A stretch of 64,000 nucleotides of DNA, from sequence record OQ411014.1; one strand, given 5' to 3'. A program made the position numbers and the translations under genes. Every line of letters starts with the position of its first letter. Position 1 is the first letter of the stretch. The DNA comes from Escherichia phage EJP2. Shown here piece by piece: positions 33,442 through 51,739 of the stretch. The notes beneath the pieces are model-generated. The model was not told the DNA's origin, searched no databases, and saw only the letters and a list, made by a program, of their open reading frames with translations.

Positions 33442-34071
33442 ATGACAACTCACGTTAGGTATTATATTGCATATAATGGAAGACCAGTTCGTTCTATTGG
33501 ATTAGATCTTGAGCCAGTAATGTCTGTACAGACTAATCTATACTTCAGTACTGAAGAAGAAGCAGACTCTTTCATTATGACTAGGATTGCAACTGCGTCC
33601 ACTACACTTTATCATATTCATTTTGATTGTATTGATAAGTACTCAATCGTCAAAGAAATTGTTCAGTTGGAACCGTGCAGTACTAAAACTAATTATATGC
33701 GAAACTATACTCTAACTTGGTTGCGATTACTCGACCAGGATATCTGTACTGATTCTATGATTTCCACTACTATACGTGCGTTCGTCATGCGTGGGTTTAG
33801 TACATCAGGATTGGATTTAGAAGAAGTGAAAAACTTGATTTTGGGTAATCCAAAACTTCAAAAAACCATTGACAAACTTATTCCAAAGCATATAATCTCT
33901 AATATTGAAAATTACATGCAAGATGGTTTAGTCAATGCTCCGGTGGAAGAGCTTGAATTCTTGAATCTAACAATTTCAGATGAAATGAAATTTGATCTTG
34001 ACTTCGAAGAACTCTTCCCTTACAATAAGTTCAAACCAACAAAATGGGAAAATCATGGAACTAGTAACTGA
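33442..34071 (+). CDS. hypothetical protein
   Basis: 209-aa ORF. Confidence 0.45.
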   Translation: MTTHVRYYIAYNGRPVRSIGLDLEPVMSVQTNLYFSTEEEADSFIMTRIATASTTLYHIHFDCIDKYSIVKEIVQLEPCSTKTNYMRNYTLTWLRLLDQDICTDSMISTTIRAFVMRGFSTSGLDLEEVKNLILGNPKLQKTIDKLIPKHIISNIENYMQDGLVNAPVEELEFLNLTISDEMKFDLDFEELFPYNKFKPTKWENHGTSN

Positions 34072-35308
34072 AGGTCGCAAACTCGTAACAATTCGTAAAA
34101 TCAATGCAATTGATGCAATTGAAGGTGCAGATCTGATTGTCAAAGCAACTGTTGACGGTTGGGATGTAGTTGTGAAGAAAGATGAATTCAACGTTGGGGA
34201 TTACTGTGTATTCTTCGAAATCGATTCATTCCTTCCAGTACAGACACCACAATTCGCATTCTTGGCGGGTTCAGGCTGTAAACTCGATGAACAGAATGTA
34301 GAACGTTTCCGTCTACGTACTCGTAAACTTCGCGGGGTAGTCTCTCAAGGCTTGGCTCTACCAGTATCTCTATTTGAGGCAGTACTGGAAGCTATTGACG
34401 AAGCTGGTGGTCATCACCCTGACTCGTACACTACAACGGCACGTGAAGAACTCCTAGTGAGTCTAGAGGCGAATCGTGAAGGCATTGAGCAATTCCTCAA
34501 TGTAACCAAATACGAGCGTCCTGATGAGCGTAATGGCGGTACTGGTGCATCTAAGTGCAAAGCTGCTGGTAACTTCCCTATCGTCATTCCTAAGACTGAT
34601 GAAGACCGTATTCAGAACGTAATGGGTAAGTACTCTCAGACTATGAAAGGTGTTGCATTCCGTAAATCACTGAAACTGGATGGTTCTAGCCAGACAATTG
34701 CATTCATTAGCAATCCTGATTTCTTTGTAGATAAAGTTGATGAAGAAGTCCGTGCATGGAATGAAGAGACTCAAGAACTTGAAGTTGTTGAAGTGAAGCC
34801 ATACCCGTTCCAATGGGAAGATGGTCAGGTAGCAGTATGTTCTCGCAATCTTGCGTTGAAATTTGATGCTGAATCTCACTTCTGGAAAGCAGCACTGAAA
34901 GATGATATTCCAGCACGTCTGAAAGAGTACTGTGTTCGTAATGACCGCCAACTAGCACTACAAGGCGAAGTAATGGGTCCTGGTATCCAAGGGAACCGTG
35001 AAGAACTGACCGAACATCAATTCTACGTATTCCGTATTTGGGATATTGATAATAAATGTTTCCTTGATGATGGTGATTTCTTGACACTATCTGCACTACT
35101 GGGATTGACTACAGTACCGCAAGGTGATATCGTGTACTTCTTCGATGAATACACTTCTATCAAAGAAGCATTGGCATCTGCTGACCACGCATCTATCAAG
35201 CATAAGATCGCGGAAGGCGATGTGTTCAAAAGTGTATCTAAAGTGAATGGTGTTACTGTACACTTCAAGGTAATCAACAACAAATTCTTGCTCAAATGTG
35301 AGGACTAA
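34055..35308 (+). CDS. ATP-dependent RNA ligase-like nucleotidyltransferase
   Basis: start set at ATG 34055; candidate motif I lysine in SLKLDGSS (KxDG) about 170 aa from the N-terminus, preceded by an N-terminal domain. Confidence 0.5.
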   Translation: MELVTEGRKLVTIRKINAIDAIEGADLIVKATVDGWDVVVKKDEFNVGDYCVFFEIDSFLPVQTPQFAFLAGSGCKLDEQNVERFRLRTRKLRGVVSQGLALPVSLFEAVLEAIDEAGGHHPDSYTTTAREELLVSLEANREGIEQFLNVTKYERPDERNGGTGASKCKAAGNFPIVIPKTDEDRIQNVMGKYSQTMKGVAFRKSLKLDGSSQTIAFISNPDFFVDKVDEEVRAWNEETQELEVVEVKPYPFQWEDGQVAVCSRNLALKFDAESHFWKAALKDDIPARLKEYCVRNDRQLALQGEVMGPGIQGNREELTEHQFYVFRIWDIDNKCFLDDGDFLTLSALLGLTTVPQGDIVYFFDEYTSIKEALASADHASIKHKIAEGDVFKSVSKVNGVTVHFKVINNKFLLKCED

Positions 35309-35916
35309 TGAAGAAAAAATTCGGCGTGGCGATAAATGACGCCGACTATGCTGTAACATCATATGACGATGCTGGTAAACGCCAGCATTGTCCCTTTTAT
35401 CGAAGATGGGCGAGTATGATAAATCGATGTTATGGTGATGTTGGTGCAACATACACTGAATCCTATGTATGTGATGAATGGTTAACCTTCTCTAACTTTA
35501 AGAGATGGATGGAAACACAAAAATGGGAAGGTATGGAGTTGGACAAAGATTTACTTTATATCAACAATAAGGAATATGGCCCAAATACATGTTTATTTTT
35601 ACCAAAGGTTATTAATTCACTATTCGTTGATAGTAAATCGAGCCGTGGTACTAATCCGATTGGTGTATCTTTTGAAAAACGTCGATTGAAATATGAAGCA
35701 TATATATCAATTGATAATAAGAAAAAACATCTTGGATATTTTGATAACCCAATTGATGCACATGTAAAATGGCAACATGCAAAATTGAAAGTATTGGAAG
35801 ATTTCATGAAAACGTTATCTGACCCTATACATATACAAATTGTAGATTTGCGAATCAACAAGCTAAAGAATGATATACAATCAAATATCATAACCGAATC
35901 TTTACATCATTTCTAA
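35308..35916 (+). CDS. AP2-domain DNA-binding protein, homing-endonuclease-like
   Basis: C-terminal YEAYISIDNKKKHLGYFDNPIDAHVKWQ resembles an AP2 domain; N-terminal W..M..RC pattern. Confidence 0.4.
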   Translation: MKKKFGVAINDADYAVTSYDDAGKRQHCPFYRRWASMINRCYGDVGATYTESYVCDEWLTFSNFKRWMETQKWEGMELDKDLLYINNKEYGPNTCLFLPKVINSLFVDSKSSRGTNPIGVSFEKRRLKYEAYISIDNKKKHLGYFDNPIDAHVKWQHAKLKVLEDFMKTLSDPIHIQIVDLRINKLKNDIQSNIITESLHHF

Positions 35917-37207: not shown

Positions 37208-37549
37208 GTGTTATATATGCTAAATGTAAACGTTCAAGGTAATGTAGAAATCACTGACGCAATTCATGAACATATTCTGGCTGAAGCGGATCATCTAGAA
37301 AAGTACAGTACTGATAAAGTACTGGAACTTGATGTTCACGTGAAAAAAGAACACAAAACTCAATACACTGTAACAATCGTTGGTAACGGCAAATCCAGTA
37401 CTGCCAACGCTGCTGATTTATACAAAGCAATCACTGACTCCTTTGGTAAAATGGATAAAGTGCTTGGTAAAGATAAGAGTGTAAAAATCAGTCGCCGTAA
37501 CAATCCTGTTCATCCTGTTGAAATTGACTTGACAGAAGACGAAGAGTAA
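37208..37549 (+). CDS. hypothetical protein
   Basis: 113-aa ORF. Confidence 0.45.
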   Translation: MLYMLNVNVQGNVEITDAIHEHILAEADHLEKYSTDKVLELDVHVKKEHKTQYTVTIVGNGKSSTANAADLYKAITDSFGKMDKVLGKDKSVKISRRNNPVHPVEIDLTEDEE

Positions 37550-38243: not shown

Positions 38244-38657
38244 ATGAAAATAGAACCTGAACGCATTGCTAAACTAAAACAACTCATGGAACATACGTTA
38301 GAACTTCCACGAGAAAATCTAACATCATTCACAACCAAACCTTGGTGTACAGGTTGGTGGGTTAGTGATTATGTTTATGCTGATTATGACCACAACGAGC
38401 TAATGATTTGTGTACTGAAAAGTGACGTGGTGTGGGGACAGACTGGTAAGTTATACATAAGTTCAAATCACGTTCAATTGATAAAAACTGCACCACCGTT
38501 TACACTTAGCGTTCCGAGAATCAGTACTGAAGAAGAGTATTTTCAACAGTCAACACTTCATGATTTGACAAATTTGGACTTGGATTTCTTTTTGACTTGT
38601 AATAAACTCTATTCACTATGTTGCAGTTTACACACGATTGGGGATACAGATGTATAG
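38244..38657 (+). CDS. paralog-array protein 1 (conserved C-terminal STEEE...LDFF motif)
   Basis: start at ATG 38244; C-terminus ISTEEEYFQQSTLHDLTNLDLDFFLTCNKLY. Confidence 0.5.
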   Translation: MKIEPERIAKLKQLMEHTLELPRENLTSFTTKPWCTGWWVSDYVYADYDHNELMICVLKSDVVWGQTGKLYISSNHVQLIKTAPPFTLSVPRISTEEEYFQQSTLHDLTNLDLDFFLTCNKLYSLCCSLHTIGDTDV

Positions 38658-39042
38658 TCGTATGCTAAAAGAACTGAATGAACTTCTGGTGAATGTATTG
38701 GGATGGCCTGCTGATAATTACAGATACATCAGAGAACGTGATTTAGGAACCATCAGAGATTGCTGGGTGAATAAATTCACATTCGCAGAAGATAATTGTG
38801 GTGATGTTTCGGTATCTTTGTCTAAATGTTCGGATATTGATTTTTGTTACATCAAGATATTGGAAGATGCAGTGGAGTTCCGAAAAGGATTGTCTACGAT
38901 TTGGAGTTACCCACGATTGAGTACTGAAGAAGAGTTTTTTCAATTATCAGTACTGCATGATACATCTGGCTTGGATTTGGACTTCTTTTTGAATTGCACT
39001 AAACTATACAACCTGGGCAAAATTGCACTAATAGAGGGATAA
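38650..39042 (+). CDS. paralog-array protein 2
   Basis: C-terminus LSTEEEFFQLSVLHDTSGLDLDFFLNCTKLY; start overlaps upstream stop. Confidence 0.5.
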   Translation: MYSRMLKELNELLVNVLGWPADNYRYIRERDLGTIRDCWVNKFTFAEDNCGDVSVSLSKCSDIDFCYIKILEDAVEFRKGLSTIWSYPRLSTEEEFFQLSVLHDTSGLDLDFFLNCTKLYNLGKIALIEG

Positions 39043-39043
39043 C

Positions 39044-39454
39044 ATGGCTATGAATCCAAATAAAGTAGTACAGCTAAGAGATTTACTACCGTACATTTTA
39101 GAACTTCCTGAGAAAGCACATAAACGATTGTCCTTCCGATATGAAGTTGGTGGTGGGTGGATCAATGACTTTGTGAATGTATTTTTCATCAATGACAAGC
39201 TCACAGTTTCCGTGACTGCTGATGTGGAGTTTAAAACTGGTTACTTCACTATAAGCGAAAATACAGTTGAATATTACACTTCCAATAAAGGTGGTGCGAA
39301 ACCGGAAATAACGTACAAACTTGTCAGTACTGAAGAAGAGCATTTCCAGGAGTCACTAATTCATGATTTAACACTTTTAGATCTGGACTTCTTCCTGAAC
39401 TGTGCTAAAATATACGCACTATGTGATGATTTGATCACGATTGATTATTATTGA
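39044..39454 (+). CDS. paralog-array protein 3
   Basis: C-terminus VSTEEEHFQESLIHDLTLLDLDFFLNCAKIY. Confidence 0.5.
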   Translation: MAMNPNKVVQLRDLLPYILELPEKAHKRLSFRYEVGGGWINDFVNVFFINDKLTVSVTADVEFKTGYFTISENTVEYYTSNKGGAKPEITYKLVSTEEEHFQESLIHDLTLLDLDFFLNCAKIYALCDDLITIDYY

Positions 39455-39462
39455 GGATTATA

Positions 39463-39864
39463 ATGTACAATAGTGTAATGATGCAGCATTTCACTACAAT
39501 GATTGGTGCTGCCATGAATAGTCCTAAACTGAAAACGTTACGCATCATTGATGGTGCGTGCTGGATTACAGAAAATGCTTTTATCTGGATGCATGAGAGT
39601 CGTGATAAATTAACTATCACAATAAAGCCATCATTTAGTTTAGAAGAGATACTACAACATAGTAGTATTGATATCAAACATGATAGTATAGATATTCGTA
39701 ACTCCCATAACCCAAAAGGTATTAATATCCCACGTATTAGTACTGAAGAAGAGTACTTTCAACAAAGTACTATTCATGATTTATCAAATTTCAACCTTGA
39801 TTTTTTCAAACAATGTGCAGTACTGTTCGATAAAACATGGGATCAACTTACATGGTGTAAGTAG
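39463..39864 (+). CDS. paralog-array protein 4
   Basis: C-terminus ISTEEEYFQQSTIHDLSNFNLDFFKQCAVLF; gagga RBS. Confidence 0.5.
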   Translation: MYNSVMMQHFTTMIGAAMNSPKLKTLRIIDGACWITENAFIWMHESRDKLTITIKPSFSLEEILQHSSIDIKHDSIDIRNSHNPKGINIPRISTEEEYFQQSTIHDLSNFNLDFFKQCAVLFDKTWDQLTWCK

Positions 39865-39891
39865 TATTTTACATTATTATGAGGAACTAAA

Positions 39892-41001
39892 ATGAAAAAG
39901 TATTTGGTTGGTGGTTTTGTACGCGATAAGCTACTTGGCTTACGTCCTAAAGACAAAGATTATGTCTTGGTAGGAGCGACCCCGCGTGATATTCAGTACT
40001 TAAAAAGTATTGGATATGAGCAGGTTGGTGCAGACTTCCCTGTGTTCTTGGATAAGGACGGCAATGAGCACGCACTTGCCCGTACTGAACGCAAGGTGTC
40101 TGATGGCTATAATGGCTTTGAAGTGAATACACAAGGTGTAACGCTTCAGGAAGACTTGTATCGTCGTGATTTGACCATCAATGCGATTGCCTTTGACCCA
40201 CAGTTAAAGGTACACGTAGACCCATATGGTGGCAAAGAAGACCTAAAGAACAAAGTACTGCGACATGTATCTGAACATTTTGAAGAAGATCCAGTACGTA
40301 TTCTGCGTATCGCTCGTTTCAGTGCACGTTATTCGGACTTTACAGTACATGAAAGTACTGAATCGTTGATTCGCCGTATGATCAATCGTGGCGATATTTC
40401 TGAATTGACTAAAGAGCGAGTGTACGTAGAATTCGAGAAAGCATTCTCCGAAGAAGAGCCAGTTATCTTCCTGGAGAAGCTATCCAAATGGGGAGCCATG
40501 AGTAAGTTGATTCCTGGTAATCCTGAAAGTACTTACAAGACTATTGAATACATTAGTTCCAATTGTACTTTAGCGTATAAGGATTTTTACTTGTGGGCTG
40601 AACTAATTGGTTCTAATGAAGTACAAAAAGATGGAGTCTTTGGTCAGGTCAAGCTACCATCGCGTTACTCTAAGTTCAGTGCGTATGTATGCAAGCACGC
40701 GGATAGTATCAAGAATTTCCGTAAGAGCACCCCAGAAGAAATGGTAAATATTCTTACTGAGATGAGCGTAAAGAACAACGGTGGTGAAGAGTACTTGTAC
40801 AAAGTACTGGAATACTTTATCCTACGTAAAGAGATTGATTTGGACTTAGAAGATTTGATTATTCGAGTTTATGATCGCTTTGAGAATACGGTCATTGGTA
40901 ATATTGATCAGATGCTTAAAGATGGAACTATCACTTCACGTGAAATTCCTTCTTTTGTGAAAGAGAAGCGAATCGCTGAGGTGGAAAAAATCTTCAAATA
41001 A
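39892..41001 (+). CDS. CCA-adding tRNA nucleotidyltransferase / poly(A) polymerase family
   Basis: GGFVRDKLLG, DKDYV and RRDLTINA head-domain motifs; 369 aa. Confidence 0.8.
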   Translation: MKKYLVGGFVRDKLLGLRPKDKDYVLVGATPRDIQYLKSIGYEQVGADFPVFLDKDGNEHALARTERKVSDGYNGFEVNTQGVTLQEDLYRRDLTINAIAFDPQLKVHVDPYGGKEDLKNKVLRHVSEHFEEDPVRILRIARFSARYSDFTVHESTESLIRRMINRGDISELTKERVYVEFEKAFSEEEPVIFLEKLSKWGAMSKLIPGNPESTYKTIEYISSNCTLAYKDFYLWAELIGSNEVQKDGVFGQVKLPSRYSKFSAYVCKHADSIKNFRKSTPEEMVNILTEMSVKNNGGEEYLYKVLEYFILRKEIDLDLEDLIIRVYDRFENTVIGNIDQMLKDGTITSREIPSFVKEKRIAEVEKIFK

Positions 41002-41064: not shown

Positions 41065-41742
41065 ATGCGATATACATGCGGGATAATATTTTATCGAAAC
41101 GGTCAGATACTTGTAGGTCACACGACTGGTCAGAGTCATTGGGATTTACCGAAAGGTAAGACTGAAGGTTCTGAGACATTCAAGGAAGCGGCAGTTCGTG
41201 AATGCTATGAAGAAACTGGATACAGTATTGATGAACGAGATTTACTGTACTTAGGTGATGTATCATACAGAAAGGGAAAGCGTTTAGTACTGTTCTTTTA
41301 CACAGCCAAGACGAAACCAATTGCTGAAGAGTTGCAATGTATCAGTACTTACACGAATAAGTACGGTATTGTACGTCCAGAGTTGGACAAATTCAAGTAC
41401 ATAGACATTGAGGACTGTGAACTCTACTTGACTGAACGGATGTGTGATAGTATAATCAAAGCTATTACACAATTTGATAAAAAGACAAATAAAAAGGAAG
41501 ATAATATGAAAGTTGTAATTTATGGTCGTAAAGCTGGTTGTAAGTGGTGTACTACTGCTAAAGAAGTTTGTGAAACTAACTCAATTGATTTTGATTTCAT
41601 TGATTTAGATGAAGCTGGTATTGATGGTGCTAAACTCGCTGAAATTTGTGGCACTCCAGTACGTACTGTTCCACAAATTTTCGTTGACGATCAACACATT
41701 GGTGGTTGTACTGAGTTTATTTCGCACCTATCCAAAATGTAA
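41065..41742 (+). CDS. Nudix hydrolase fused in frame to a glutaredoxin/NrdH-like domain
   Basis: perfect Nudix box GKTEGSETFKEAAVRECYEETG; C-terminal MKVVIYGRKAGCKWC (CxxC) preceded by internal RBS aggaag at 41494 and ATG 41506, no stop between the domains. Confidence 0.6.
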   Translation: MRYTCGIIFYRNGQILVGHTTGQSHWDLPKGKTEGSETFKEAAVRECYEETGYSIDERDLLYLGDVSYRKGKRLVLFFYTAKTKPIAEELQCISTYTNKYGIVRPELDKFKYIDIEDCELYLTERMCDSIIKAITQFDKKTNKKEDNMKVVIYGRKAGCKWCTTAKEVCETNSIDFDFIDLDEAGIDGAKLAEICGTPVRTVPQIFVDDQHIGGCTEFISHLSKM

Positions 41743-42350: not shown

Positions 42351-42851
42351 ATGAATAACATCACACATCACGTAGGAAATCTTTTCAACTTATATAAAGA
42401 AGTAGGTGAAGAGAATAACAGTACTGATAGTGAAGTAATGAACGTTATTATTCATGGTTGTAACGCACAAGGTCGTATGGGTTCTGGTTTTGCTAAAGAA
42501 TTACGTGCACGTTTTCCTGGTGCTTATAACGAATATAAAAAACAGTACGAAAGTACTGGACTTCAGTTAGGAAAGAACGTATACTACTTACCACATGATG
42601 AAAACACCCTTATCGTAAATGCTATCACTCAAGAGTATTACGGATATGATGGTAAGAAGTACGTTAGTTATGACGCAATTGATGATTGTATGATTGAACT
42701 AAATACTCTACTTTCTGGAATGGATGGAAATATCCAAATTCACTTCCCAAAAATCGGAGCCGATTTAGGTGGTGGTAATTGGGAAGTAATCAAAAGTATC
42801 ATTGAAACACGGGTAATCTTTGGTACTAAGCATCTATATACCCTAGTATAA
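42351..42851 (+). CDS. macro-domain protein (ADP-ribose binding/processing)
   Basis: VIIHGCNAQGRMGSGFA and IHFPKIGADLGGG resemble the two macro-domain glycine-rich motifs; 166 aa. Confidence 0.6.
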   Translation: MNNITHHVGNLFNLYKEVGEENNSTDSEVMNVIIHGCNAQGRMGSGFAKELRARFPGAYNEYKKQYESTGLQLGKNVYYLPHDENTLIVNAITQEYYGYDGKKYVSYDAIDDCMIELNTLLSGMDGNIQIHFPKIGADLGGGNWEVIKSIIETRVIFGTKHLYTLV

Positions 42852-45285: not shown

Positions 45286-47931
45286 ATGGCTGATCTATTA
45301 TCACCAGGTGTAAGTGTAACAGTCACTGATGAGTCAATGAGCGGTGCTTCTGCTCCAGGGACTGTCCCACTTATCATCATTGCAACTGCACAAGACAAAT
45401 TGGTTCCAGGCAGCACATCTGTTGCACCAGGGACTCTCAAAGCGAACGCTGGTAAACTACAGCTACTAACTTCACAAAAAAATGCCCTTGACGTATTCGG
45501 GACACCTATTTTTCAGAAACATTTAGGTTCAGTAGTTCAAGGCGACGAATTAAACGAATACGGCTTACATGCTGCTTATTCATATTTGGGAATTGCAAAC
45601 CGTGCTTATGTAGTACGTGCTGACATCGACCTAGCACAGCTAGCACCAACTGGTACTGCACCAACTGGCCCTGTTACCAACGGTAAACTATGGTTAGATA
45701 CTACTGCAAGTCAAGTTGAAGCATATGTTGCTAAGAAAGATGACCCACAATCATTCTACGACTGGCAACTAAAACCAGTACGCATCGTTAGTGCGGCTGA
45801 TATTGCTGATGTTGATACTATTGGTCTAAACGTTGATGACCTAGTACTACGTTACAACCCAGCGAATGGTCAACTACTAATGTACAAATTTTCTGCTGCT
45901 GGTCTAGTTCAAGTTGAAACTTACCTATCACCAATCAACAAAGTACCATCAGGTATTGAATACAATGAAGGTGATATTTGGATTCGTGATGGTTTCACTA
46001 AATCTGGTTCTAACTACTTCGGTACTCGTTTTGTTATTAAACGTTATGCTTCTCTAACTCGCGTATGGCAGAATGTTGATACCTTTACTGGTACAAGTTT
46101 CTATGAAATTGAATCTAAAACTGGTGTAATGTCGTCTTCTTACATCACTGCACTATTCGATTATGATAGTAATAGTTTCTCCTTCTATATGCAACGTGCT
46201 TCATTACCTACCGTTACCGCTGGTGCAGTTCCAGTTGGTCAATCTTCGGTAAACACTGCTGCTGTTGATGGTTTCTTAACTGTTAATTATCTAAATAAAT
46301 CCGTTAAAGTACTAGCAGTACTACAAGGTCAACTAATTAATGCTGCTGTTATCATTGAAAATTTGAATAAGAGTTCAGTACTAATTAACGCAGGTTTCAC
46401 ATTCACTGGAACACAAGATGTTGTCATTACTAACCGTAATGGATATAGTTTTAAAGTGAGTCAATCAGACGAAGTGATTTTTAGCCAACAAGAACTCAAG
46501 AAACTAACTCAAGATAGCAGTAACTATGCACTAGTTAACGTTAACAACCTAGTAACTTCAGCAACCGAACCACGTGCTGTTGCACCAGAAGGTACTTACT
46601 GGTATGACTTTAGTAACTCTGACAATCTTGAAGTAACTCTTTATACTGCTAATACCAGTACTGAAGATTGGGATCTAGTAATTGCTAGTGACAAGTACAT
46701 CCAAGTTGATGAACCTGCTGCTGACCGTTCTTTCTGGGTTCTACCACTATCTCAAGGTATTGATGGTTATGAGTTCTATCGTAACGTAAATGGTGAGTGG
46801 ATTAAACTAGATCCAGCAGACCAAAGTACTCTAAACGGTATGATTTACGAAGACTTCAATGACGAAGTACCAAGTGCTAACCTATACCAAAACGGTATGC
46901 TTGCAATTGACCTAGGCAATACTGAAGGTGTTGTTAAACAAATGGTTAATGGTAAGTGGGTAGTAGTAAGTGGTGTTGCTATTGATGGTTCTGGTCTATT
47001 TGGTCGTCATGCACAACGTCAAATGATTGTTGAAGCTATGGCATCTGTTATCGTTAGCAACGAAGCGATTCGTTCTGAGACTGTCGATTTCAACCTAGCG
47101 GTTGCTCCTGGTTATGTTGAACTACTAGATGAACTAGTAACTCTAAACACTGACCGTAAAGAAACATCTTTCTTGATTACTGATGTTCCAGCACGTTTGA
47201 AACCTTCCAGTACTGACGTACAAGAATGGGCTACTAACGCTAACAACGCTCCAAGTAACGGTGATATCGGTCGTGTAACTGCATACGATTACGCTGCACA
47301 ATACATGGGTTGGTGCTTAGGTACTAACGTTGATGGTGAAGAAGTTGCTATTCCTGGTTCTTCTGTTGCACTACGTACCTATGCGTACAGTGACAGTGTT
47401 TCTTATGTATGGTATCCACCAGCAGGTACTGCACGTGGTGTTGTTTCCAACGCTGCTTCAGTAGGCTTCATCAATGATGAAGGCGAATATGAGCCAGTAG
47501 TTTACAACCAAGGCCAACGTGATATCATGTATATCAACAAGATTAACCCGATTGCAATGCGTCCAAACCGTGGTCTACTAGTTTATGGTGATAAGACACT
47601 AACTGCGAACGAAACTTCAGCACTAGCGAACGTAAACGTAGCACGTCTAATCGTATACATTCGTCGTCAACTAGACATTCTTGCTGAACCATTCCTATTC
47701 CGTCTAAACACCCCAAGTACTCGTCAGGAGTTCGCTGGTGTAGTGAACAGCTTCCTAGCAGAAATCGTTCAACTAAATGGCCTATACGACTTTACTGTTG
47801 TGTGTGATGAATCAAACAACACCCCAACTCGTATTGACCGTACTGAACTATGGATGGATATTGCGATTCAACCAACTCGTACAATTAACTACATTTATGT
47901 ACCAATTCGTATCGAGAAAACTCAAGCATAA
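45286..47931 (+). CDS. tail sheath protein
   Basis: 881 aa; N-terminus ADLLSPGVSV and C-terminus IDRTELWMDIAIQPTRTINYIYV resemble the T4 gp18 termini as recalled; followed by tube genes. Confidence 0.8.
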   Translation: MADLLSPGVSVTVTDESMSGASAPGTVPLIIIATAQDKLVPGSTSVAPGTLKANAGKLQLLTSQKNALDVFGTPIFQKHLGSVVQGDELNEYGLHAAYSYLGIANRAYVVRADIDLAQLAPTGTAPTGPVTNGKLWLDTTASQVEAYVAKKDDPQSFYDWQLKPVRIVSAADIADVDTIGLNVDDLVLRYNPANGQLLMYKFSAAGLVQVETYLSPINKVPSGIEYNEGDIWIRDGFTKSGSNYFGTRFVIKRYASLTRVWQNVDTFTGTSFYEIESKTGVMSSSYITALFDYDSNSFSFYMQRASLPTVTAGAVPVGQSSVNTAAVDGFLTVNYLNKSVKVLAVLQGQLINAAVIIENLNKSSVLINAGFTFTGTQDVVITNRNGYSFKVSQSDEVIFSQQELKKLTQDSSNYALVNVNNLVTSATEPRAVAPEGTYWYDFSNSDNLEVTLYTANTSTEDWDLVIASDKYIQVDEPAADRSFWVLPLSQGIDGYEFYRNVNGEWIKLDPADQSTLNGMIYEDFNDEVPSANLYQNGMLAIDLGNTEGVVKQMVNGKWVVVSGVAIDGSGLFGRHAQRQMIVEAMASVIVSNEAIRSETVDFNLAVAPGYVELLDELVTLNTDRKETSFLITDVPARLKPSSTDVQEWATNANNAPSNGDIGRVTAYDYAAQYMGWCLGTNVDGEEVAIPGSSVALRTYAYSDSVSYVWYPPAGTARGVVSNAASVGFINDEGEYEPVVYNQGQRDIMYINKINPIAMRPNRGLLVYGDKTLTANETSALANVNVARLIVYIRRQLDILAEPFLFRLNTPSTRQEFAGVVNSFLAEIVQLNGLYDFTVVCDESNNTPTRIDRTELWMDIAIQPTRTINYIYVPIRIEKTQA

Positions 47932-47947
47932 TTTGTGAAATAATAAA

Positions 47948-47975
47948 GGGAACCTTATGGTTCCCTTTTTCTTTT
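47948..47975 (+). terminator. hairpin gggaacc/ggttccc followed by T5
   Basis: perfect 7-bp stem, loop ttat. Confidence 0.8.
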
Positions 47976-48051
47976 CTAGTAACTACATTATGTGATAATT
48001 TTCTGATAAATATATTAAAGATAATTTTCCTTGTGAATTGGAGATCAATAC

Positions 48052-48741
48052 ATGGCAAATATGATAGATAAATATGGAGTCCCACTTCCTGGTGGTGGTC
48101 GCATTTCCATGAAGCAACCTAAAGCGAAATATAAGTTTCGTGTTATCTTCTTTGGCTTTGGTGTCGGGGATGATGGCAACTACATTACTGTAGATACAAA
48201 TACTGTTGGTGCAGTTCATGTGGAACACGAAGATGTAACCGTACATAGCTATAACAGTTCTGCACACTATAAAGGTAAGTACACTTGGAGTCCAATCGAA
48301 GTTGCTTTTCGTGATAGCGTTGGTAACATGAGTGCGAAAGCAGTTTACAACCAAATGCGTAAAGAATTTAACTACTACACCCAAGAATCCCGTATGACTG
48401 ACTCACAGTTCAAGTTCGAAATGTGGATTCAAGAGCTAGACGGTTCTAACAGTGAATCCACTACCAACCTATTCGAAGGTACTCTAAGTACTTGGGTATG
48501 TCAGGGTTGCTTTATTTCTGACTCTAACTTCGGTGAATGGGATTACTCCAGCAGTGATGCACAAGTAATCACCATGACTGTACGACCAGATGGTTGTGCA
48601 AAACTAGGTCCAGAAGGTCAACCATTCGGTGATGAAGTTTCCGGTAACGGTACTCCAGAAAACGCTACTAGTATTAGTGGTGCACAAACTGCAATTTCAA
48701 GTACTTCTATTACTGATAGTAACTTCTACAACGAACAATAA
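48052..48741 (+). CDS. putative tail tube protein (paralog 1)
   Basis: directly downstream of sheath; MANMIDKYGVPLPGGGRISMKQPKAKYKFRVI paralogous to the next ORF. Confidence 0.5.
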   Translation: MANMIDKYGVPLPGGGRISMKQPKAKYKFRVIFFGFGVGDDGNYITVDTNTVGAVHVEHEDVTVHSYNSSAHYKGKYTWSPIEVAFRDSVGNMSAKAVYNQMRKEFNYYTQESRMTDSQFKFEMWIQELDGSNSESTTNLFEGTLSTWVCQGCFISDSNFGEWDYSSSDAQVITMTVRPDGCAKLGPEGQPFGDEVSGNGTPENATSISGAQTAISSTSITDSNFYNEQ

Positions 48742-48768
48742 TAATAAAAGTACTTTTCAGTACTACAA

Positions 48769-48800
48769 AAGCCTTGGAAAAACATTCCGAGGCTTTTTTT
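48769..48800 (+). terminator. hairpin agccttgg/ccgaggct followed by T7
   Basis: 8-bp stem with one G-U pair. Confidence 0.6.
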
Positions 48801-48846
48801 ATGCTAAATAAATGATAATATGTTTTTTACAGATAGAGGTTACTTT

Positions 48847-49620
48847 ATGGCAAATATGTTAGACAAATACGGTGTACCGCTACCTAGTGGAGCTAACCGT
48901 ACAATGCTCCAGCCAAAAGCAAAGTATAAATTCAGAGTAATTGTATACAATTTCGGTACTGAGATTGATGAACGTGATCACATCGCACTGGACGTTGATG
49001 CAGTAGATAGACCAAGCATTACATTCAAAACACATAAGGTGTTTCAGTTCACCACGAACTCATCCTATGTTGGTAGCCACGACTGGAACCCAATTAAATT
49101 AACAATTCGTGATTCTATTGGTAACAAAAGTACTAAAGCGATTTCACGTCAATTACAAAAACAACTTGACTTTCAACGTAGGATTACGGCAAAATCAGAA
49201 CAGGATTATTCAGGCTATAAGTTCGGCATGATTATCCAAATGCTAAATGGTAGAAATAGTGATGATTCTCTTGACAATCTAGGAAGAGACACTATAATTG
49301 ATGCTGCAACTGCTGCAACCAATAATGGTGGTTTAGTTAACGCTGTGGATCAATTCCTAGGTGGAAGCAACTACAACAGTGCTGGAGTTATGGAGTACTT
49401 TGTATGTACTGGTTGTATCATAACTGATACCGACTATGATTCACTGGACTACTCTTCAAGTGCACCATTGAAAATATCCCTTACTATTAAGCCGGATACT
49501 GTACATCAATTTGATTCAATTGAGGAAATGTATAAAACCCGCATATCTTCTTTACTACCAGATGGTGTGAATCAGGGTCTTGATATACTTGATCGCATAA
49601 TCGGTTCAGTAGGTTTATAA
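48847..49620 (+). CDS. putative tail tube protein (paralog 2)
   Basis: start at ATG 48847 (agagg RBS); MANMLDKYGVPLPSGANRTMLQPKAKYKFRVI. Confidence 0.5.
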   Translation: MANMLDKYGVPLPSGANRTMLQPKAKYKFRVIVYNFGTEIDERDHIALDVDAVDRPSITFKTHKVFQFTTNSSYVGSHDWNPIKLTIRDSIGNKSTKAISRQLQKQLDFQRRITAKSEQDYSGYKFGMIIQMLNGRNSDDSLDNLGRDTIIDAATAATNNGGLVNAVDQFLGGSNYNSAGVMEYFVCTGCIITDTDYDSLDYSSSAPLKISLTIKPDTVHQFDSIEEMYKTRISSLLPDGVNQGLDILDRIIGSVGL

Positions 49621-49630
49621 GGAGAATAAT

Positions 49631-51739
<2,109 letters not shown>

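Follow-up and report, generated by a model that had tools for sequence, protein, structure and literature searches.

A CCA-adding enzyme without an HD domain in Escherichia phage EJP2 and the phage tRNA genes that it may complete

CCA-adding enzymes of phages and the cca gene of EJP2

CCA-adding enzymes have already been reviewed as a common RNA-repair component of jumbo phages, in which they are the next most common RNA-repair nucleotidyltransferase (Iyer et al. 2021, PMC7824862). Phage T4 borrows the enzyme of its host, its tRNA-Pro and tRNA-Ser genes having no CCA and depending on the host tRNA nucleotidyltransferase (PMC11143913), whereas Escherichia phage EJP2 and its relatives carry an enzyme of their own. 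Here we examine this enzyme, the product of the gene cca (EJP02_191), which lies in a 64-kb stretch of the EJP2 genome (positions 64001-128000, or 18% of 349,185 bp; hereafter the window). In E. coli, all host tRNA genes encode CCA, and the host Cca therefore works in the repair of CCA ends.

The EJP2 gene is itself already known: it is annotated in GenBank and in the supplementary table of the EJP2 paper, and it falls into a populated PHROG family. We consider it likely that the product is an ordinary template-independent CCA-adding enzyme that gives EJP2 a CCA capacity of its own, finishing two phage tRNAs whose genes lack CCA and maintaining the 3′ ends of all tRNAs.

The open reading frame (ORF) at 39892-41001 on the plus strand is real, with an ATG start, 369 codons and a Shine-Dalgarno sequence. 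Its product is identical to WEM33252.1, "tRNA nucleotidyltransferase [Escherichia phage EJP2]", and Table S1 of the EJP2 paper (PMC10213699) places EJP02_191, "tRNA nucleotidyltransferase", at 103892-105001, which is the window coordinates plus exactly 64000; the same offset fits EJP02_192 and EJP02_195. The motifs from which a class II tRNA nucleotidyltransferase had originally been predicted are present in the translation (GGFVRD at amino acids (aa) 7-12, DKDYV at aa 21-25 and RRDLTINA at aa 91-98), and the class is borne out by three profile collections. Pfam matches the PolyA_pol head (5e-20) and PolyA_pol_RNAbd (4e-9), the top NCBIfam match is the gammaproteobacterial Cca model PRK10885 (3e-82, profile positions 1-208 of 409), and PHROG 2244, "tRNA nucleotidyltransferase", covers the full length (3e-108). 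Judged from sequence, assignment to the class II tRNA nucleotidyltransferases, the CCA-adding enzymes, is secure. The PRK10885 score of 276.5 bits is below the curated cut-off of 451, and by this measure the product is placed outside the "multifunctional" family, in which Cca combines nucleotidyltransferase and HD domains.

The head and neck, which make up the catalytic core, are 51% identical to E. coli Cca (b3056) over aa 1-208 and have motifs A-E and the flexible loop in common with it. We read conservation from an alignment of 32 full-length family members at 37-79% identity. Invariant residues comprise G7, G8, R11, D12 and D23 of motif A (with D21 at least 90% conserved), R91, R92 and D93 of motif B, D110, P111 and G114 of motif C, E132, D133, P134 and R136 of motif D, the EDxxR nucleotide-selecting template, and R176 and E180 of motif E (with K183 at least 90% conserved). 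Motifs B-E align to those of E. coli Cca. Between motifs A and B lies the loop, EHALARTERKVSDGYNGF at aa 59-76; it pairs with EYALARTERKSGSGYTGF of E. coli Cca, and the indels at its flanks are all of one residue. This flexible-loop segment, ALARTERK..GY.GF, is thus retained in the phage enzyme, and the block E59-K68 together with G72, G75 and F76 is invariant in the family. The flexible loop is needed for addition of A76, and it is said, after work by Neuenfeldt et al. in PNAS in 2008, to be the part that CC-adding enzymes have lost. Its intactness here argues against a CC-only enzyme. Head and neck appear to derive from the gammaproteobacterial Cca lineage.

The C-terminal half differs. E. 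coli Cca has a C-terminal HD domain and the phage enzyme does not: BLAST similarity between the two stops abruptly, with none past aa 208, and aa 201-369 of the phage protein match no Pfam family at E<=1, whereas the same scan places HD (PF01966) at 229-328 of E. coli Cca with 54 bits. An AlphaFold2 model built on the 32-member alignment (predicted local distance difference test (pLDDT) 93, predicted TM-score (pTM) 0.85) was compared with solved structures. The top 46 Foldseek matches are all class II enzymes, the best being the T. maritima CCA-adding enzyme 3H38 (E 1.5e-16, query TM-score (TMq) 0.73), which superposes over the full length across ~400 columns. Solved class II enzymes of T. maritima (3H37, 3H38, 5HC9), Planococcus halocryophilus (6IBP, 6QXN) and B. 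stearothermophilus (1MIV) have the same fold along their full length (TMq 0.67-0.73), but they are only 22-25% identical to the phage enzyme, and their body and tail sequences are not recognisably like it; the sequence match to 6IBP has E = 9e-26. In its predicted structure, then, the phage protein is a head-neck-body-tail ("seahorse") CCA-adding enzyme without an HD phosphohydrolase. The possibility that the C-terminal half holds a degenerate HD domain was dismissed, there being no Pfam match at E<=1 and the fold being that of an ordinary body and tail.

The HD domain of E. coli Cca reportedly has 2′,3′-cyclic phosphodiesterase, 2′-nucleotidase and phosphatase activities, a finding attributed to Yakunin et al. 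in 2004. HD-less phage orthologs are labelled inconsistently, as "multifunctional CCA protein", [quoted passage not shown], "phosphatase", "Appr-1-p processing domain protein" or "hypothetical protein". Because the phage enzymes have no HD domain, the phosphodiesterase, phosphatase and "multifunctional" labels on several of them are over-annotations that their domain content does not support.

The closest protein relative of EJP2 Cca is that of Erwinia phage Hallingskeid (75.6% identity). Some 70 Rak2-like/Asteriusvirus jumbo phages with genomes of about 310-373 kb follow, those listed having roughly 58-62% identity. At the DNA level, the phage collection contains nothing near-identical to the window, and a 57-nt piece of cca has no exact match in IMG/VR. 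Full-length orthologs occur in 75 phage records and in many metagenomic contigs. Jumbo-phage members of PHROG 2244 (PBECO4 gp033, YP_009150347.1; 121Q gp539; GAP32; Hallingskeid CDS0471) are about 370 aa long, 58-76% identical to the EJP2 enzyme and of the same full-length architecture. The exact EJP2 protein is found in at least 23 assembled contigs, and contigs of this phage population that cover the cca region match the window DNA at about 99% identity. EJP2 and the Rak2-like/Asteriusvirus phages also have a gene order in common, HPF ... cca - nudix - glutaredoxin ... macro. Against these phages nothing of substance differs, except that nudix and glutaredoxin are fused in EJP2 and Hallingskeid and that the tRNA sets and their CCA status vary.

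Phage tRNA genes and their 3′ ends

The original prediction reasoned that, with no phage tRNAs in these 64 kb to mature, the enzyme would serve host tRNAs. The window indeed has no tRNA genes (ARAGORN, 0 tRNAs; Rfam, 0 families). The rest of the genome does: six tRNA genes are reported for EJP2 (PMC10213699). They lie at about 256.7-268.8 kb, about 129-141 kb past the window end and about 152-164 kb from cca, so that their absence from a window covering 18% of the genome is uninformative.

We traced the EJP2 tRNAs through a cytosine methyltransferase that sits among the Hallingskeid tRNAs and then through its homologs in contigs. One homolog, P0003, is identical to EJP2 WEM33426.1 (EJP02_365, 260761-261618), and it occurs in contigs of samples in which the exact Cca is present too (ERR11507041, SRR30782167, SRR20950768 and SRR10822051). 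Three 20-kb loci around it (L042-L044) hold tRNA-Ser(tga), Arg(tct), Ser(act), Ser(gct) and Met(cat), with Thr(tgt) in addition in L043, whose gene spacing matches EJP2. Strain variants of the EJP2 lineage differ in small genes, and one lacks the tRNA-Thr. The mapped positions of all six tRNAs coincide with gaps without ORFs in the EJP2 gene table (256606-256855, 264406-264779, 267093-267207 and 268239-268785). A second homolog, P0006 (83% identity, on contigs of 251-263 kb), shares no samples with the window's Cca; it was set aside as belonging to a sister lineage and used for comparison only.

In the EJP2-lineage contigs, Ser-tga, Arg-tct, Ser-act and Ser-gct encode CCA. Met-cat ends in ...AGGGGCC-A followed by TTAAC, and Thr-tgt, in L043, ends in ...TTCAAGC-A followed by TTTAT; neither encodes CCA. 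These two have the highest Rfam scores in the locus (71.3 and 70.7 bits, respectively), and their Rfam and ARAGORN ends coincide. The original prediction had itself named CCA-less phage tRNAs outside the window as a finding that would count against it, and such tRNAs are seen there as Thr-UGU and Met/Ile2-CAU, as read from contigs about 99% identical. With two such tRNAs in EJP2, simple maturation is a sufficient role for the enzyme.

The EJP2 "Met-cat" is most like E. coli genes annotated as tRNA-Ile (87.8%) and, by this similarity, is probably a lysidine-type tRNA-Ile2 reading AUA. Used as a probe, it matches more than 1500 phage records, the best being T4-like Aeromonas phages. Hallingskeid and PBECO4 have a Met-cat with encoded CCA, and the CCA-less EJP2 gene (L042:17775-17848) resembles it less than it does the tRNAs of those Aeromonas phages (about 90%). 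Such a pattern suggests that exchange renews the tRNA set whereas cca is retained.

CCA status varies among relatives. The seven tRNAs annotated in Hallingskeid lie at 86.8-114.7 kb, at a distance of 147-175 kb from cca, and all seven have encoded CCA; for the middle and far end of the genome, beyond the reach of the ARAGORN scan, the total of seven rests on the feature count of the record (675 coding sequences + 7 = 682). PBECO4 encodes CCA in two Ser tRNAs and a Met tRNA, has discriminator-C-AAA in Asn and Thr, and has a Gly tRNA called by ARAGORN only that is also without CCA. In the sister-lineage contig L012, both tRNAs seen (Ser-act and Met-cat) encode CCA. Genes without CCA thus number 2/6 in EJP2, 2-3 of 6 in PBECO4 and 0/7 in Hallingskeid, with cca constant in all three.

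Codon use in the window is heavy for codons of the phage tRNAs (per 1000: ACA 18.5, AGA 6.5, UCA 16.4, AGU 22.5). One of these tRNAs is unusual. A34 is rare in bacterial tRNAs except Arg-ACG, and a CCA-encoding tRNA-Ser with anticodon ACT (A34; Rfam 53.7 bits) is kept in EJP2-lineage contigs, the sister lineage and Hallingskeid (L042:16605-16694, L043:16602-16691, L012:840-929 and, on the minus strand, L011:15573-15663). Its predicted codon is AGU, which the window uses more than any other Ser codon (32% of Ser). Two further Rfam tRNA matches are weak, just over the gathering score and without an ARAGORN call (L043:20602-20663, 31.3 bits; L046:31285-31363, 29.3 bits). The former maps to an ORF-free gap at about 271164-271311 of EJP2, and both may be degenerate tRNA-like elements.

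The role of the phage enzyme

If cca gives EJP2 its own CCA capacity, then after 3′ trimming the enzyme would build CCA on tRNA-Thr-UGU and on the tRNA-Ile2-like CAU species, and it would re-add lost 3′-end nucleotides on phage and host tRNAs, as E. coli Cca does. We infer the enzymatic activity, the substrates in vivo and a benefit over relying on the host Cca. The mixed CCA status of the tRNA genes alongside a constant cca suggests both maturation and maintenance roles.

Several points weigh against this account. Hallingskeid keeps cca though 7/7 of its tRNAs encode CCA, which means that maturation is not the sole selective reason for the gene across the clade. The phage gene is also formally redundant, the E. 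coli host Cca being sufficient for the CCA-less tRNAs of T4. The tRNA 3′ ends were read from metagenomic contigs with the exact EJP2 methyltransferase (about 99% identical) and not from the EJP2 record, and the literature searched yielded no biochemical or genetic study of this enzyme or of another phage's Cca. The enzyme probably has 3′-end repair among its tasks. The original prediction of a host-tRNA repair role loses its premise and with it the support for its reasoning, while 3′-end repair as such stays plausible, given a cca in Hallingskeid together with a fully CCA-encoding tRNA set, and Pnkp, RNA ligases and PTH2 in EJP2.

We regard it as unlikely that the enzyme acts primarily in counter-defence, rebuilding host tRNAs whose 3′ ends toxins or anti-phage nucleases have damaged. 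Most toxin RNases leave 2′,3′-cyclic-phosphate or 3′-phosphate ends, and with the HD phosphoesterase domain absent the enzyme alone could not use either. The idea started from a lack of phage tRNAs that does not hold for the EJP2 genome, where two phage tRNAs need CCA synthesis and maturation suffices; nothing points specifically to host tRNAs or defence nucleases, and no experimental report of such a role was found in the literature searched. What speaks for it is that Hallingskeid retains cca where no phage tRNA needs CCA synthesis, that Pnkp (3′-phosphatase/5′-polynucleotide kinase), RNA ligases and a PTH2 protein near the tRNAs resemble an RNA-repair toolkit in EJP2, that Abi-type toxins (AbiE/MenT) target tRNA 3′-CCA ends (PMC7725324), and that Iyer et al. 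class phage CCA-adding enzymes with RNA-repair systems (PMC7824862). We give little credence to an extension of this idea in which the conserved cca - nudix(-glutaredoxin) - macro string would join with PTH2, Pnkp and two RNA ligases to form a dedicated counter-defence module. Such a module would strip lesions from tRNA 3′ ends (CapRel/FaRel2-type pyrophosphate, AbiE/MenT-type extra pyrimidines, ADP-ribose) and the HD-less Cca would rebuild CCA last, a sequence of steps that we find quite improbable; what supports it is gene adjacency.

Two other readings concern what the protein is and whether it matters. Another member of the class II superfamily, be it a poly(A) polymerase or an enzyme of split function that adds CC or A, was rejected on profile scores and the intact flexible loop, and we would be most surprised to find one here. 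Foldseek does match the A. aeolicus A-adding enzyme and E. coli poly(A) polymerase (PAP) structures too, classes that it does not separate, and NCBIfam gives weak matches to the A-adding model (67 bits, likewise below its cut-off) and to the poly(A) polymerase I models TIGR01942 (pcnB; 104 bits against a cut-off of 305.65) and PRK11623 (50.5 against 702). The best NCBIfam match by far, at 276 bits, is nevertheless the gammaproteobacterial CCA enzyme, the whole catalytic core is 51% identical to that of E. coli Cca, a bona fide CCA-adding enzyme, and the flexible-loop segment is conserved. It also seems very unlikely that cca is a dispensable, host-redundant passenger without a significant role in infection. 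Such a reading could appeal to the non-essentiality of E. coli cca, as stated in the title of Zhu and Deutscher 1987 (reference R51 of PMC11291079), and to the ability of the host Cca to process T4 tRNAs (PMC11143913). Against it stand the full-length orthologs in the 75 phage records and many metagenomic contigs, catalytic residues that vary little or not at all in homologs as distant as 37% identity, and conserved synteny, which together indicate purifying selection.

Neighbouring genes and implications

The coordinates of cca, its parts and the other RNA-related and adjacent genes are collected in Table 1.

Table 1. The cca gene of EJP2 and annotated neighbours, in window coordinates
Feature	Coordinates	Strand	Description and basis
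cca (EJP02_191 / WEM33252.1)	39892..41001	+	369-aa HD-less class II CCA-adding tRNA nucleotidyltransferase; ORF and Pfam/NCBIfam/PHROG matches
Shine-Dalgarno GAGGA of cca	39881..39885	+	read from sequence; 6 nucleotides before the ATG
Head and neck, aa 1-208	39892..40515	+	catalytic core; 51% identical to residues 1-208 of E. coli K-12 Cca
Body and tail, aa 209-369	40516..40998	+	predicted all-helical tRNA-binding domain; E. coli Cca has its HD phosphohydrolase domain here instead
NUDIX-glutaredoxin fusion	41065..41742	+	Pfam NUDIX and Glutaredoxin; PHROG 1185; directly downstream of cca
Macro-domain protein	42351..42851	+	Pfam Macro 4e-5; PHROG 335; macro domain protein in PBECO4
RNA ligase (PHA02142 OB fold and RNA_ligase domain)	34055..35308	+	Pfam; PHROG 968 2e-102; 4.6 kb upstream of cca
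HPF/RaiA (S30AE) ribosome hibernation factor homolog	37217..37549	+	Pfam PF02482 1.5e-12; conserved in PBECO4 (gp039) and Hallingskeid-type contigs

The adjacency of cca and nudix-glutaredoxin is also seen in Hallingskeid, and PBECO4 has two separate genes (gp032 and gp031). The fusion, present in Hallingskeid-type contigs, is called only "Glutaredoxin 1" in the EJP2 table. Relatives of the macro-domain gene go under the names "phosphatase", "Mll3540 protein" or "macro domain-containing protein". An ADP-ribosylglycohydrolase gene, EJP02_343, lies near the EJP2 tRNA region, and it and the macro-domain protein are possibly counter-measures to ADP-ribosylation.

Like T4, EJP2 would combine tRNA genes without encoded CCA with Pnkp and RNA ligase; the RNA ligase in the window is confirmed by its Pfam and PHROG matches, and Pnkp is known from the authors' annotation table. 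That table (PMC10213699) is the source for RNA ligase EJP02_095 and the 3′-phosphatase/5′-polynucleotide kinase (Pnkp) EJP02_099, at EJP2 47727-50499, about 14-16 kb before the window start; by annotation, the two would make up a T4-like heal-and-seal tRNA repair pair. EJP02_095 is the only gene named RNA ligase there, the ligase in the window not being so named. A gene for a PTH2-family peptidyl-tRNA hydrolase is found among the tRNA genes of the EJP2 lineage and, likewise, of the sister lineage (L042:6595-6993; EJP2 about 257355-257753); in EJP2 it is EJP02_356, labelled "hypothetical protein".

Directly upstream of cca are three tandem paralogous ORFs of 134-137 aa (38638-39042, 39044-39454 and 39451-39864) with a common C-terminal motif, STEEE.FQ.S..HD...(L/F).LDFF..C. 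They have no Pfam match and only a weak match to PHROG 21500, a family of unknown function. The RNA ligase gene is followed directly by a 202-aa ORF (35308-35916) whose match to the HNH endonuclease profile PHROG 953 (2e-79) is confined to the C-terminal half of the profile, and in this segment the window aligns with 0/6 near-identical metagenomic contigs. It is probably a homing-endonuclease insertion or the remnant of one.

No conclusion about a 349-kb genome follows from a feature that is missing in one 64-kb tile of it. For the family, the labels "multifunctional CCA/2′,3′-cyclic phosphodiesterase" on several database records should be corrected. The mixture of CCA-encoding and CCA-less tRNA genes beside a constant cca offers a clean genetic test of what the phage enzyme does.

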